From Escherichia phage vB_EcoM_G2540: a stretch of DNA of 64,000 bases. Positions 839-6,094 of the stretch are shown piece by piece. The position numbers and the translations under genes are program-made. Location: the sequence record MK327936.1. The stretch is one strand, 5' to 3'. Position 1 is the stretch's first letter. Each line of letters starts with the position of its first letter. The notes under the pieces are model-generated. The model worked only from the letters and a program-made list of their open reading frames with translations, made no database searches and was not told the origin of the DNA.

Positions 839-1843
839 TTAGCTCACCAACTCAATCCAAGCTGGACGAAGTACATCTTGTACCATTTTAACTAATTCCT
901 TTTTAATCAAAGAAGGATTATCTGCTTGAGTTAGAGTAATACCTTCACGAGAAGTTTCTTCCAAAATATCTTGAACAGTTAGCCCCATCACCTTTCCAAA
1001 ATCTTTAGGACCAATTTCGCCAATTTTAGAAATAACGTTATTTACTCGGTTCAGTGTAACGTAACAAGCTAAAATTCCCACCAATTTGTTATCAGCTTCT
1101 GATAGCTCAACTTTAGCTTTAATAGGCTTATCAGACTTTTTCTTTTCACTAAATTTGGAATTCTTGCATTTAATTGCTACACGATTTCCATTACGAAGCC
1201 AAGAAGGATAACAAGGTTTCAATACATATCCTTCAGCGGTAAATACTTCGCCTTTTGCTTCGGCATTCCAAACGCATTTATTTGCATCAACTAATCCAGC
1301 ATGGTCTACTGTAAAATTATAATCTTGGACGACAGAATCTAAATCATTTGGCAATTTAATAAGCTCTTCAAATTTACCGCGACCTAAAAGTTGAGCCATT
1401 TTAAATTTAAATGTATTGCAGAATGATTCCATCATATAATCGTCGACATAAGTCACATCACCACTTTCTGTAGTGACAATAATGTCAAATACATAAAAAT
1501 CTTTATCGCCATAATCGACATTCTTCTGAATGCCAGGTCCAGCGAATTCGCCAAAGACTTGATAAGATACAACCGCTGAAGTTTCCATAATATCTTGCAC
1601 TGCTTTAATGGAATCAGCGTAATTCTTTAGAATAATTTCATACCCAAAGAAATCTTCAGCAGGAAGAATAGGACCAGTACGTTTAGCGCAAGTCACTTTA
1701 TCACGCTCAATAATCAACGAGAAATTTGTGCCGTGAATCTTTTCACGAGCTACCCATTCGCCGCCAGTCAATCCCAAGCTGTAAAGTTTTTCAATAAATT
1801 TAGAGTTGTAATGATTTTCAAGACTGCTATACTTTTTAAACAT
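839..1843 (-). CDS. rnlB: RNA ligase 2 (Rnl2)
   Basis: 334 aa, same length as T4 Rnl2; N-terminal nucleotidyltransferase lysine motif EKIHGTNF (KxHG); synteny after gene 24. Confidence 0.85.
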
Positions 1844-1852
1844 AATTAATCC

Positions 1853-2131
1853 TCAAAATGTAATTTCTAACCAATCACCATCACGCTGATCACTATTGAC
1901 TTTAAAGCTAAATCCTTCTTTTCTAAGCCAATCACCAATTTCTTCAGTAATCAATTTATCGCGAGCAGTACAATAATAACTAAAATGTGTTTTACCTTGT
2001 TCAGCTGCTTTATTAGCAAGTTCCGAAAAATCTTTAATAAAACACTCTAGCTTAAACTGTTTACTTTTAAGTGCTTTTTCGCGTAATTGATTAGCAAAAG
2101 ATTCATTTTCATAAAGATCATACTGTTCCAT
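1853..2131 (-). CDS. Hypothetical protein (24.2-like position)
   Basis: 92-aa ORF tightly packed between rnlB and hoc on the coding strand. Confidence 0.45.
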   Translation of the reverse strand: MEQYDLYENESFANQLREKALKSKQFKLECFIKDFSELANKAAEQGKTHFSYYCTARDKLITEEIGDWLRKEGFSFKVNSDQRDGDWLEITF

Positions 2132-2333
2132 TTTTCACCTTTTTATTGATATGTCTTTTTCTATAGACAACTTTTTCTCGAGTTTCAAACTTATTCTTAG
2201 CAGTCATAGCTCGAGCCCATAATACAGCTACTTCTTTCGCCTGTAAGTTTAATTCACGAGCAATTTCAATGAATGACTTTCCAGACTCATGAAGAGTAAA
2301 CACCACAACCTCAGTTCTCATAATCAATCTCAT
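2118..2333 (-). CDS. Hypothetical protein (24.3-like position)
   Basis: 71-aa ORF, overlaps downstream ORF by 14 nt in typical T4 fashion. Confidence 0.4.
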   Translation of the reverse strand: MRLIMRTEVVVFTLHESGKSFIEIARELNLQAKEVAVLWARAMTAKNKFETREKVVYRKRHINKKVKNGTV

Positions 2334-2388
2334 GTTATCGAGTTGGTGCCATTATATACATCATTTTCTGAGTGTGTTTTGTGTGCTT

Positions 2389-2417
2389 TCAAAATGAAGA
2401 AAGGGGGCCGAAGCCCC
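2389..2417 (-). terminator. Rho-independent terminator downstream of hoc
   Basis: GGGGC-CGAA-GCCCC hairpin (2404-2417) followed on minus strand by T-rich tract. Confidence 0.6.
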
Positions 2418-2423
2418 TTATGA

Positions 2424-3842
2424 TTATGGATAGGTATAGATAATACCAGTTTCTAAAGCAGTTTTATGAATGATGTATCCATTACGTGATTCTTGGACAT
2501 CAACTTCTGGATAGTCTTTCATCATCTTCTGAAGAGTGTAACGATGCAGGTAGTATTTACTATCTGGATCTTCAGTTTTCCAATCTTTACCTTCTTCAGT
2601 CATTTTTTGGATTTCATCCATGACCCACCAACCGCACCAGATGTAAGCTGAGCTACGGTGTGGAAGAGGATGAACATAAGGTAATTCACCTTCTGGTTCT
2701 GGAGCAACTTTATCAGTCACTTGAACTTGACCTTCTGCCGTAATAGTTTTGCTATCATAATCAGCAGCAGTAACAGTCGCAGTAACTTCAATAGTTTGAC
2801 TTCCAATAGATGAGGTATCAACGGTATATACATTAGTTGACCCTTCTACAGGAGAAGAATCTTTCTTCCATGAATACTCAATTTGCGCTTCTTCTGGAGC
2901 ATCAGTAACATTAGCAGTAAATGTAGCCGAAGCATCTTGTTGAACGTTAATAGAAGGAGGAGTCAATGTAACCTGTGGATTCATTGTCTTCTTATTAACT
3001 GTTAATGATACTTCATTAGAAGTAACTTCCTTTTCATTGTAATTTTCAGCAGTTACTTGGGCTACGCATTTAATTCTTTTTACTCCACTTGTAGTTGGAG
3101 TATAGCTAAATGTAGAGTTAGTTTCTCCACCAACTTGTGAATCATCTACATACCACTGATACGTAGCAGATGCTCCATCAGGTTGAGAAACTAAAGTAGC
3201 GGTAAATTCAACAGCTGTTCCGATTACTCCAGCTGAAGGACTATCGGGAGTTACTGCCAAGGTAGTTGTCTGTGTCTTTTTATTAACAGTCAGTGACACT
3301 TCATTAGAAGTAACTTCTTTTGCATCATAATCTGTCGCGGTTACTTGAGCCACACACTTAATTGTTTTAACTCCGCTTGTGGTAGGAGTGTAATTGAATG
3401 TAGCAGAAGTTGCTTCGCCCACAGGAGAACCGTCAACGTGCCATTGATACGTAGCAGATGCACCTGGTGGCTGCGAAGCTAAAGCGGCAGTAAATTCAAT
3501 AGCTGTTCCGATTACTCCAGCGTCAGGGCTATTAGGAGTTACAGCTAAGGTGGTCGTTTGTGTCTTATTTTGAACTGTGATAGTTGTAGTAGCTTCTGCT
3601 GTTTCAGCTTCAGCTTCTGGAACTGTATTTGTTGCAACTACTTTAATAGTCTTTTGACCGGCAGGTCCTTTTAATACATAACTAAAAGTTGCTTCAGCTC
3701 CATCTTGTGGAACATCATCTACAGTCCAAGCATAGGTAATAGGTCCATCTCCAGTTTGACCACTGGGTGTAGCAGTAAACTGCTGAGTCTGATCTATAAC
3801 TCCAGTAGGTGTTTTAGGAGTTATATCAACTGTAAAAGCCAT
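2424..3842 (-). CDS. hoc: Highly immunogenic outer capsid protein Hoc, with four Ig-like domains
   Basis: 472 aa; repeated Ig-like modules (e.g. ...KTQTTTLAVTP...TSGVK.IKCVAQVTA...); conserved C-terminal capsid-binding region (EPEGELPYVHPLPHRSSAYIWCGWW); synteny. Confidence 0.85.
   Translation of the reverse strand: MAFTVDITPKTPTGVIDQTQQFTATPSGQTGDGPITYAWTVDDVPQDGAEATFSYVLKGPAGQKTIKVVATNTVPEAEAETAEATTTITVQNKTQTTTLAVTPNSPDAGVIGTAIEFTAALASQPPGASATYQWHVDGSPVGEATSATFNYTPTTSGVKTIKCVAQVTATDYDAKEVTSNEVSLTVNKKTQTTTLAVTPDSPSAGVIGTAVEFTATLVSQPDGASATYQWYVDDSQVGGETNSTFSYTPTTSGVKRIKCVAQVTAENYNEKEVTSNEVSLTVNKKTMNPQVTLTPPSINVQQDASATFTANVTDAPEEAQIEYSWKKDSSPVEGSTNVYTVDTSSIGSQTIEVTATVTAADYDSKTITAEGQVQVTDKVAPEPEGELPYVHPLPHRSSAYIWCGWWVMDEIQKMTEEGKDWKTEDPDSKYYLHRYTLQKMMKDYPEVDVQESRNGYIIHKTALETGIIYTYP
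2993..3565. repeat. Tandem direct repeat (2 x ~288 bp) inside hoc encoding two near-identical Ig-like domains
   Basis: Units ~2993-3277 and ~3278-3565 align base for base with high identity; protein units of 96 aa. Confidence 0.7.
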
Positions 3843-3851
3843 AAGTTATCC

Positions 3852-4532
3852 TTATTTTAATGTTACGAAAGAAGAATTGCGTGTTTCACGAATTAAAACT
3901 GATCCGTCGCGGTTAATGTAATAAATTAAGCTAAATAAAGTTTGGTGTGCTGACGCATGTTCAAAACTAGTTGGGTGAGATTTCCAATCCGGAGTTTCAG
4001 CAATCCATTGATAAATCCACCAAGGAACAGTACAGAATCCTGGATTTTTTCCAATCAGCTGAAGATTCGGACTAAAGTTTTCCGGAAGAGTAAATACAGA
4101 CGGCTTTTCAGATTCAACAATCTCAGCTACAGCCTGTTCGAATTTTTCTTCAACAAAAGGAGTATCTTCAATCAAAACTGAGGTATTTTCAGGAATTTTA
4201 TCCGTTTCTACTACTTCAATTTTAATGTCAGATTTAACCGGAGAATCAATCAGAAGTGCTGCTTCTGGATTGACTTCTTCATCGTCATATTTTAATCCCT
4301 CTGCGGCATCAGCAGCATCAATTAGGTCTTTAATAGATAACCCATCAGTCTCTGGCATAGGTTCACTAGCGAGCTTCTGGAGGGCTTCTTCAATATCAAC
4401 AACGATATTATCAAAAGATTTATTCTTTTTGACCTTTATACCAAACTGTTCAGCATATTCAGCTAATTTAGCTTTAGCTTCTTTGTTATCATCAAGAGCC
4501 TTCAGCTCTGCAATATAATCTTTATCTATCAT
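3852..4532 (-). CDS. inh: Inh-like protein (inhibitor of prohead protease), acidic
   Basis: 226 aa; position between hoc and uvsW as in T4; assignment by synteny and size only. Confidence 0.5.
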   Translation of the reverse strand: MIDKDYIAELKALDDNKEAKAKLAEYAEQFGIKVKKNKSFDNIVVDIEEALQKLASEPMPETDGLSIKDLIDAADAAEGLKYDDEEVNPEAALLIDSPVKSDIKIEVVETDKIPENTSVLIEDTPFVEEKFEQAVAEIVESEKPSVFTLPENFSPNLQLIGKNPGFCTVPWWIYQWIAETPDWKSHPTSFEHASAHQTLFSLIYYINRDGSVLIRETRNSSFVTLK

Positions 4533-4546
4533 AATATTTCCTCAGT

Positions 4547-4554
4547 ATAAATAT
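4547..4554 (+). promoter_or_regulatory. T4 late promoter (TATAAATA) for uvsW
   Basis: Exact TATAAATA 29 nt upstream of uvsW ATG. Confidence 0.6.
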
Positions 4555-4582
4555 AGATATATTTATTACATGGTATTTAGAC

Positions 4583-6094
4583 ATGACTGACATTAAAGTA
4601 CATTTTTATGATTTTAGTCACGTGAGAATTGACTGTGAAGAAAGTACATTTCATGAACTCCGTGATTTCTTTAGCTTTGAAGCTGATGGGTATCGTTTTA
4701 ATCCGAAATACAAATATGGCCACTGGGATGGACGAATCCGTCTTTTAGATTATAATCGTCTTCTTCCATTCGGCTTAGTCGGGCAAATTAAAAAGTTCTG
4801 TGATAACTTTGGCTATAAAGCCTGGATTGACCCACAAATTAACGAAAAAGAAGAATTATCAAGAAAAGATTTTGATGAATGGCTTTCTAAATTAGAAATC
4901 TATTCAGGAAATAAAAGAATTGAACCACACTGGTATCAAAAAGATGCAGTGTTCGAAGGATTAGTTAATCGTCGTAGAATTCTTAATCTTCCAACATCTG
5001 CAGGTAAATCTTTAATTCAAGCTTTGCTTGCGCGGTATTATTTGGAAAATTATGAAGGTAAAATTCTTATCATTGTTCCAACAACTGCTCTGACAACTCA
5101 GATGGCTGATGACTTCGTCGACTATCGTTTATTCAGCCATGCAATGATAAAGAAAATTGGTGGCGGAGCATCAAAAGATGATAAATATAAAAATGATGCA
5201 CCAGTCGTTGTTGGTACATGGCAAACTGTAGTTAAACAACCAAAAGAATGGTTCTCACAGTTTGGAATGATGATGAATGATGAATGCCATCTTGCTACAG
5301 GAAAAAGTATTTCATCTATCATATCAGGTTTAAATAACTGTATGTTTAAATTTGGTCTATCTGGTTCATTACGTGATGGCAAAGCCAATATCATGCAGTA
5401 TGTTGGAATGTTTGGTGAAATATTTAAGCCAGTAACGACTTCTAAGTTAATGGAAGATGGACAAGTAACTGAGCTAAAAATTAATAGTATTTTTCTTCGC
5501 TATCCCGATGAGTTCACTACTAAATTAAAGGGAAAAACTTATCAAGAAGAAATAAAAATTATTACTGGGCTTAGTAAAAGAAATAAATGGATCGCTAAAT
5601 TAGCTATTAAGCTTGCGCAAAAAGATGAAAACGCTTTTGTCATGTTTAAACATGTATCACATGGTAAAGCTATTTTCGATTTAATTAAAAATGAATACGA
5701 TAAAGTTTATTACGTATCAGGGGAAGTTGATACCGAAACCCGCAATATAATGAAAACCTTAGCTGAAAATGGTAAAGGAATAATTATAGTAGCTAGTTAT
5801 GGTGTATTTTCTACTGGTATTTCAGTTAAAAATCTGCATCATGTTGTTTTAGCGCACGGTGTTAAATCAAAAATCATTGTATTACAAACAATCGGTCGTG
5901 TATTACGTAAGCATGGTTCTAAGACAATAGCAACCGTCTGGGACCTCATAGATGATTGTGGCGTTAAGCCAAAATCTGCTAATACGAAAAAGAAATATGT
6001 TCATTTGAACTATCTTTTAAAACACGGCATTGATCGTATTCAGCGCTACGCAGATGAAAAATTTAATTACGTAATGAAAACAGTTAATTTATAA
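4583..6094 (+). CDS. uvsW: UvsW DNA/RNA helicase
   Basis: 503 aa; Walker A PTSAGKS and DExH box MNDECH; synteny. Confidence 0.9.
   Translation: MTDIKVHFYDFSHVRIDCEESTFHELRDFFSFEADGYRFNPKYKYGHWDGRIRLLDYNRLLPFGLVGQIKKFCDNFGYKAWIDPQINEKEELSRKDFDEWLSKLEIYSGNKRIEPHWYQKDAVFEGLVNRRRILNLPTSAGKSLIQALLARYYLENYEGKILIIVPTTALTTQMADDFVDYRLFSHAMIKKIGGGASKDDKYKNDAPVVVGTWQTVVKQPKEWFSQFGMMMNDECHLATGKSISSIISGLNNCMFKFGLSGSLRDGKANIMQYVGMFGEIFKPVTTSKLMEDGQVTELKINSIFLRYPDEFTTKLKGKTYQEEIKIITGLSKRNKWIAKLAIKLAQKDENAFVMFKHVSHGKAIFDLIKNEYDKVYYVSGEVDTETRNIMKTLAENGKGIIIVASYGVFSTGISVKNLHHVVLAHGVKSKIIVLQTIGRVLRKHGSKTIATVWDLIDDCGVKPKSANTKKKYVHLNYLLKHGIDRIQRYADEKFNYVMKTVNL

Follow-up and report, generated by a model that had tools for sequence, protein, structure and literature searches.

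Tandem domain 2-type modules in the Hoc protein of Escherichia phage vB_EcoM_G2540 and their variable copy number in Tequatrovirus

One of the questions raised by the hoc locus of Escherichia phage vB_EcoM_G2540 concerns why the outer capsid protein that it encodes is 472 amino acids long, when the Hoc of phage T4 is made of 376. In T4-type phages a single Hoc monomer occupies the middle of every gp23* hexamer, with 155 copies per capsid, and the protein is dispensable for growth. Where does the extra length come from, how old is it, and is it peculiar to this phage? The initial annotation, which was made from the sequence alone, attributed the extra residues to one additional Ig-like module created by a near-identical tandem repeat of about 288 bp, and saw in this a domain gain that marks an active recombination site. 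The DNA under study, referred to here as the window, is a stretch of 64,000 nt from sequence record MK327936.1.

The hoc gene and the architecture of its product

The hoc coding sequence occupies positions 2424..3842 of the window on the minus strand, stop codon included, and both lengths given by the initial annotation hold, the 472 aa of this ORF being taken from the ORF list and the 376 aa of T4 Hoc from PDB entry 5vf3_Z and from the T4 record, where hoc measures 1131 nt. The encoded protein (accession QBO63417.1) matches T4 Hoc (5vf3_Z) in phmmer with an E-value of 4.9e-226, and the comparison with PDB sequences identifies it as the highly immunogenic outer capsid protein, a head decoration fibre. 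The order of the surrounding ORFs, namely rnlB (839-1843), 24.2 (1853-2131), 24.3 (2118-2333), hoc, inh (3852-4532) and uvsW (4583-6094), matches phage FL08 and the T4 annotation, such that hoc is found in its established position. The gene and its inh/24.3 locus are shared with T4 (PDB 5vf3, 8t1x), whereas the length of the protein differs (376 against 472 aa), as does the neighbourhood of inh, which adjoins segE in T4 but not in the G2540 window, where segE is absent. The genome is that of a Tequatrovirus, the first 24 kb of the window being about 97% identical to PhiZZ30, vB_Eco_Solly and others. The late-promoter motif TATAAATA occurs in the window at a chance-level count, and none is present directly upstream of hoc on the hoc strand.

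The alignment to T4 Hoc reveals where the additional residues lie. Query residues 1-127 align with T4 residues 1-127 and query residues 189-472 with T4 residues 93-376, so that T4 residues 93-127 are aligned twice, in two collinear pieces, the mark of a domain 2 that has been duplicated. The G2540 protein is built as D1 - D2(A) - D2(B) - D3 - capsid-binding domain, whereas T4 Hoc has the architecture D1 - D2 - D3 - capsid-binding domain, the difference between the two being one D2-type module. On the minus strand, Ig-like domain 1 (aa 1-92; 3567..3842) aligns with T4 Hoc 1-92 and is modelled as a beta-sandwich with a pLDDT of about 81-94. It is followed by the two copies of the tandem repeat, module A as the first D2-type Ig-like copy (aa 93-188; 3279..3566, minus strand) and module B as the second (aa 189-284; 2991..3278, minus strand). 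Next comes Ig-like domain 3 (aa 285-380; 2703..2990, minus strand), which aligns with T4 Hoc 189-284 and is modelled with a pLDDT mostly of about 90 or above (84-94 per 10-residue block). The capsid-binding domain at the C terminus (aa 381-472; 2427..2702, minus strand) is near-identical to T4 Hoc 285-376 and invariant among 64 aligned homologues; given this near-identity to T4, the G2540 Hoc monomer would be expected to take the same place at the centre of the gp23* hexamer. Both hallmarks of a Hoc are present, in the form of homology to the T4 capsid-binding domain (residues ~281-376) and of an N-terminal string of Ig-like (PKD/Ig) domains.

Structural modelling gives a corresponding picture. 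An AlphaFold2 model built from a 64-sequence alignment has a mean pLDDT of 85.6 and contains four beta-sandwich domains across residues 1-380, most of the 10-residue blocks reaching a pLDDT of at least 90, together with a C-terminal alpha/beta domain that is modelled at low confidence (pLDDT 43-68 per 10-residue block). When the model is compared with the PDB by Foldseek, the top matches are four-Ig ectodomains, those of ICAM-5 D1-D4, Dscam Ig1-4 and Sidekick Ig1-4, and the search also retrieves the Hoc of RB49 (3shs) and 8t1x_X, the latter with 89% identity and a target-normalised TM-score of 0.75. In Pfam, the cutoffs are exceeded by PKD, PKD_3 and BiPBP_C and narrowly missed by Ig_3 and I-set, whose matches fall at aa 289-373, within domain 3. 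The phmmer alignment and the four-domain model thus bear out the view that the extra length is one Ig-like module, a tandem copy of domain 2 of 96 aa.

Divergence, distribution and kinship of the modules

The repeat is readily detected within the DNA. A repeat finder reports a direct, head-to-tail repeat at 2985-3272 and 3273-3560, with a period of 288 nt and 77% identity, and TRF reports 2985-3566 with the same period, 2.0 copies, 78% matches and a score of 705, which makes it the sole tandem repeat with a score of at least 60 across the 64-kb window. A sliding self-comparison of the coding sequence at an offset of 288, the check that had been proposed with the repeat, rises from a background of about 30% to an identity of 60-87% only at CDS nt ~256-585. 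In codon register the units are module A at 3279-3566 and module B at 2991-3278, within 1-2 nt of the limits first given, and the period of 288 nt equates to 96 aa, or one Ig-like module, so that the repeat is in frame and of the size of a domain. An inverted repeat at 3118-3194 (71% complementary) was also considered and judged to be a side effect of the composition of the repeat.

The repeat is real, but it is not near-identical. Modules A and B differ at 67 of 288 nt (76.7% DNA identity) and share 77 of 96 residues (80%), with the first and second codon positions each 87.5% identical and the third only 55%, and by the Nei-Gojobori method dS is 1.19, dN 0.12 and omega (dN/dS) 0.10. Copies of this kind are not those of a recent duplication or of an unstable repeat; the near-saturated dS and the omega of 0.10 point to an old duplication with purifying selection on both copies. 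By comparison, orthologous parts of hoc in the window and in slur14 or Sfk20 (domain 3 left out) have a dS of 0.15-0.5, and the modules therefore predate by far the splitting of the alleles that were sampled. A candidate for the junction of the founding duplication is found in the boundary sequences, where the hexamer AAGACA, encoding Lys-Thr, is present on the minus strand at the start of module A (3561..3566), of module B (3273-3278) and of domain 3 (2985-2990), and could plausibly have served as microhomology.

Is the two-module gene particular to this phage? Matches to hoc are present in 655 phage records, the best being EC128 at 97.8%, where identity to the window is 99-100% in D1, A and B but drops to 95% over D3 and the capsid-binding C terminus. 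When 60 records were taken evenly across the full-gene matches, approximately 19-22 of about 55 Tequatrovirus records, or about a third, were found to have at least two modules (one aligned piece of 1419 nt), including RB27, AR1 and pSs-1, while the 1131-nt form is that of T4, T2, RB14 and RB51. At the protein level, 77 of the best 120 clusters are Hocs of 376 aa, 29 are of 472 aa and 7 of 568 aa, with a few others off by 1-4 residues. Longer forms include the 568-aa Hoc of UGKSEcP1 and the 664-aa Hocs of slur14 and Sfk20, the latter with four D2-type modules, and these 568- and 664-aa Tequatrovirus proteins have grown by that very D2-type module of 96 aa, with only the copy number differing. 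Alleles with 1, 2, 3 and 4 modules thus have 376, 472, 568 and 664 aa, a polymorphism in steps of one unit. The 472-aa Hocs of EC128, slur02/04, RB27, AR1 and RB30 share the G2540 architecture D1-A-B-D3-C at 89-100% protein identity. The G2540 protein itself recurs without change on 5 contigs of various origin, and its 90% identity cluster of 167 members includes the RB30 entry AAM52483.1, an "outer capsid protein Hoc" of 472 aa. A recent domain gain in this phage is not sustained, given the dS of 1.19 and an A-B architecture that occurs in about a third of the sampled records and in 29 of the 120 best clusters.

Some further observations relate to these surveys. Database names for the 472-aa class vary, from PKD domain protein to capsid and scaffold protein, capsid whiskers protein and Hoc-like head decoration. 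A query of 100 nt spanning the A|B junction was unusable as a count, since half-matches of single-module genes were joined into one full-coverage place; records with 4-5 such places did point to the 664-aa alleles. A scan of IMG/VR with hoc DNA returned 21 loci, mostly from a diverged clade with Hoc lengths of 282, 377 and 471-472 aa. On two of these contigs (L006 and L007) the duplicated unit is a D3-type module, unlike the D2-type unit of G2540 and Tequatrovirus, the two copies on L007 having 72 of 90 residues in common. The D3-type duplication within this diverged clade indicates that tandem duplication of a domain-sized unit recurs in Hoc.

The relationships among individual modules are more intricate than those of a simple doubled domain. 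The single domain 2 of T4 is nearer to module B (88.9% DNA, 87.5% aa) than to module A (77.8% DNA, 82.3% aa). Module A is 100% identical in amino acids to the sole domain 2 of some 376-aa Hocs (P0119, P0082) and 85-88% identical in DNA to the module that leads the array in slur14 and Sfk20, whose alleles have four, and module B is 97% identical in amino acids to the sole domain 2 of P0077 and P0091. Position in the array also matters, as first modules across alleles have a mean amino acid identity of 0.89 to each other and of 0.78-0.79 to second modules, and the last modules in three-module arrays are a separate type. Within a protein, no two modules are more than 85% identical in amino acids in any of the 30 multi-module Hocs examined. 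Window-by-window sequence painting resolves both the modules of the G2540 gene and the single domain 2 of T4 into mosaics of the four types present in slur14 and Sfk20, so that the T4 domain is itself composed of module types that are found in tandem elsewhere. The 472-aa form may accordingly be read either as a gain relative to T4 or the 376-aa form of T4 as a contraction.

Unequal crossover between hoc alleles

The clearest view of how module number changes comes from phage FL08 (PP400785.1), whose hoc is 1131 nt long and agrees with the window at every position over the 276 nt ahead of its module and the 567 nt that follow it. The single module of FL08 carries 23 informative sites of A type followed by 44 of B type, and removal of 288 bp (3174-3461) from the window hoc reproduces the FL08 gene at 1131 of 1131 nt. 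The switch from A to B in FL08 occurs at a 17-nt stretch, GCATCTGCTACGTATCA, which is the site of unequal crossover in module A (3445..3461, minus strand) and has an identical partner in module B (3157..3173, minus strand). Apart from the 288-bp indel, the two phages are identical across 2230-5034 (2.8 kb), beyond which the flanks fall to about 97.5%, so that the chimeric unit lies between alleles that are otherwise the same. The exact reconstruction of FL08 and its clean transition from A to B lead to the conclusion that one unequal crossover separates the two alleles, and the chimera is most simply read as the contraction of an A-B array. The deletion in FL08 could in principle stem from laboratory propagation or from the FL08 assembly; judged by its sequence, the FL08 gene is a real crossover product all the same.

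Other allele pairs tell a similar story at the protein level. The 568-aa P0006 can be aligned with the 664-aa Hoc of Sfk20 with 1 mismatch and a crossover at aa 299-305. P0053 (376 aa) pairs with P0025 (472 aa) with 2 mismatches and a crossover at aa 129-134, while P0033 (472 aa) pairs with two 376-aa proteins, P0067 (crossover at aa 92-103) and P0107 (aa 129-134), each with 2 mismatches. For P0016 (472 aa) and P0007 (568 aa) the figures are 5 mismatches and aa 272-286. The crossover intervals fall on conserved sequences at the start (KTQTTTLAVTP), middle (GASATYQW) and end (VTSNEVSLTVNKK) of the module. The suggestion of an active recombination site therefore holds at the population level, in FL08 and in the other allele pairs, but not by way of near-identity, as the crossovers use short conserved stretches.

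Origin of the array and its meaning for the capsid fibre

How, then, did the two-module gene come about? It is highly probable that the D2-type modules are old and in tandem, in an array of one to four copies that changes by unequal recombination; G2540 has the common two-module state. On this reading modules A and B are old tandem paralogues, or else module types of similar age, and purifying selection keeps both of them. Within Tequatrovirus the array of D2-type modules is in frame and ranges from 1 to 4 copies. Its length very probably shifts time and again when modules pair out of register and undergo unequal homologous recombination, with crossovers in the short conserved sequences that lie at the start, in the middle and at the end of a module, and exchange among module types very probably turns the modules into patchworks. 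Homologous recombination in T4 is very active. A different route to the same gene, possible although rather doubtful, is that a single unequal (illegitimate) crossover during co-infection joined diverged A-type and B-type single-module alleles in tandem. The components for such a merger exist, in that the 376-aa single-module Hocs comprise A-like (19), B-like (43) and intermediate (15) forms, some of them carrying a module with 100% (A) or 97% (B) amino acid identity to its counterpart in the window, and hoc is mosaic between phages, as with the 99-100% identity of EC128 in D1, A and B against 95% in D3 and the C-terminal domain; the AAGACA hexamer at all three domain boundaries could act as the microhomology. 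However, A- and B-type single-module alleles are equally well explained as contractions of an array, with crossovers at aa 174-190 and aa 92-103, and the fixed order of the four module types in slur14 and Sfk20, along with the similarity of modules by position, fits an old array. The near-saturated dS could in part be due to a module brought in from a diverged allele and not to long residence in tandem. Duplication followed by divergence, on the one hand, and allelic merger, on the other, are not mutually exclusive, and both may have occurred.

Much further down the scale of probability is a recent duplication, private to G2540 and present as a currently unstable, near-identical repeat. The exact period of 288 nt, in frame and in two copies, is what such an event would leave behind, but it is refuted by the divergence of the copies (67 of 288 nt, dS 1.19) and by their distribution across records, with the two-module class occurring in hundreds of them, RB27, AR1 and RB30 included; the 85% ceiling on amino acid identity among the 30 multi-module Hocs argues likewise. 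Least probable of all, to the point of being negligible, is a spurious expansion of the repeat during assembly, for which nothing speaks beyond the general risk that repeats pose in assemblies. Copies that are 23% diverged cannot arise or collapse through read mis-assembly, the ORF is intact with both copies under purifying selection, and the same protein recurs on 5 contigs and within a 90% identity cluster of 167. With 67 sites of difference between the copies, and with many independent assemblies showing this architecture, an artefact is excluded.

What would an additional D2-type module do to the fibre? The Hoc fibre of T4 has a length of 180 A and the protein an acidic character, and around 650 Hoc homologues combine a conserved capsid-binding domain with a variable number of Ig-like domains, which reaches 10 in Muldoon (Fokine et al. 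2023, PMC10385173). The Hoc of that Serratia phage, at 1174 aa, likewise joins its string of Ig-like domains to the conserved part that binds the capsid (PMC10385173). On this scale, each of the approximately 155 fibres of G2540 is estimated to be one Ig domain longer, or roughly 40-45 A in addition to the 180 A of T4. Module B has a charge of -4.2 and the full G2540 Hoc a pI of about 4.45, and each fibre would be predicted to carry around 4 more negative charges. In phage PNJ-9, whose Hoc is without domain 3, residues S183/L184/T185 (Ser-Leu-Thr) of domain 2 are necessary for binding to MUC2, with MUC2 fucose involved (Fu et al., PMC11853027). The same SLT motif is present in G2540 Hoc at aa 183-185 and again at aa 279-281, and each fibre would probably display the D2 surface twice, motif included. 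With this surface presented twice, the avidity with which glycans or cell surfaces are bound could change, as could the antigenic surface of the capsid.

Arrays of this type have parallels elsewhere. The tandem Ig, PKD and BIg arrays of bacterial and eukaryotic adhesins, which change in length by unequal crossing-over, share with hoc the in-frame domain repeats, the copy-number polymorphism between close relatives and the chimeric units at crossovers, and many of the bacterial arrays are near-identical. Hoc differs from them in that it is a viral capsid decoration protein, with repeats that are about 20-25% diverged in DNA. A more speculative extension, considered unlikely at present, is that the D2 array is a copy-number-variable locus that tunes fibre length and glycan-binding valency, where selection maintains a divergence of about 20-25% between adjacent modules, largely synonymous, against collapse by T4 recombination, and where a nearby target site of the homing endonuclease SegE between inh and uvsW promotes the exchange of hoc alleles in mixed infections. 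If this were true, the pair formed by the window and FL08 would provide natural isogenic material for the bacteriophage-adherence-to-mucus model.

A four-Ig Hoc is already known as a common, deposited length variant with an old duplication behind it; variation in Ig number has likewise been published, and unequal crossover is the textbook mechanism for domain arrays. The literature searched gave no explicit account of tandem D2 modules in Tequatrovirus, of the RB30 Hoc or of unequal crossover between modules. The addition made here is a modest one and consists of sequence-level evidence, from the comparison of the window with FL08, for a change in module number via unequal crossover at short conserved stretches, together with the observation that the canonical domain 2 of T4 is itself a mosaic of module types. 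Hoc is the proposed mucus and cell-surface adhesin of the T4-type phages, and it acts as the display scaffold in T4 vaccine and vector platforms. It is because of these adhesin and display roles that natural alleles with 3, 4, 5 and 6 Ig domains matter for the choice of strains in phage therapy, for serology and for display engineering.

Module number and type among Hoc proteins

The hoc genes of the phages slur14 (positions 1287-3281 of its extracted locus, L023) and Sfk20 (positions 711-2705 of L024) are both 1995 nt in length, encode a protein of 664 aa and carry four D2-type modules, thereby giving Hoc six Ig-like domains. DNA identity between these modules ranges from 74 to 84%. A parallel length series is present in a diverged Hoc clade from IMG/VR contigs (loci L006, L007, L008 and L012), characterised by the N-terminus MAYTV..., where the proteins are 282, 377 and 471-472 aa in length. 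Here, the extra unit in the L007 protein is a tandem copy of a D3-type module, with 72 of 90 residues common to both copies, and the L012 protein is without domain 2.

The single domain 2 of T4 hoc (positions 201-1331 of L025) is itself a mosaic. Over a core of about 130 nt it does not differ at all from module B, one of the two tandem D2-type modules of the window. A 3' piece corresponds to the type of module that comes first in slur14 and Sfk20, and the 5' part is mixed. The reference 376-aa T4 Hoc may itself be a recombinant or a contraction product.

Across public records the annotation of hoc matches varies from record to record, and includes capsid and scaffold protein, PKD domain protein, capsid whiskers protein, capsid vertex protein, endonuclease and hypothetical protein. 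For several Hoc entries the assigned organism is a bacterium (E. coli, Shigella sonnei or Salmonella), and these presumably come from phage contigs within bacterial assemblies.

The tract common to the window and FL08

Window 2230-5034 and the corresponding region of phage FL08 (PP400785.1, L001) form a 2.8-kb tract that is identical except for the 288-bp module indel, and which extends from within 24.3 through hoc and inh into the beginning of uvsW. The flanks outside this tract are ~97.5% identical, a difference in sequence that points to a segment recently shared or exchanged.

The inh-uvsW gap and SegE

In T4, segE, which encodes a GIY-YIG homing endonuclease, is annotated between inh and uvsW, whereas the window is segE-less at the same place since the intergenic gap (4533-4582) between inh (3852-4532) and uvsW (4583-6094) is only 50 nt. 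In relatives without segE, RB30 among them, the inh-uvsW region is cleaved by SegE, which drives co-conversion of flanking markers. As the start of hoc lies 0.7 kb from this gap, SegE-driven co-conversion could contribute to hoc mosaicism.
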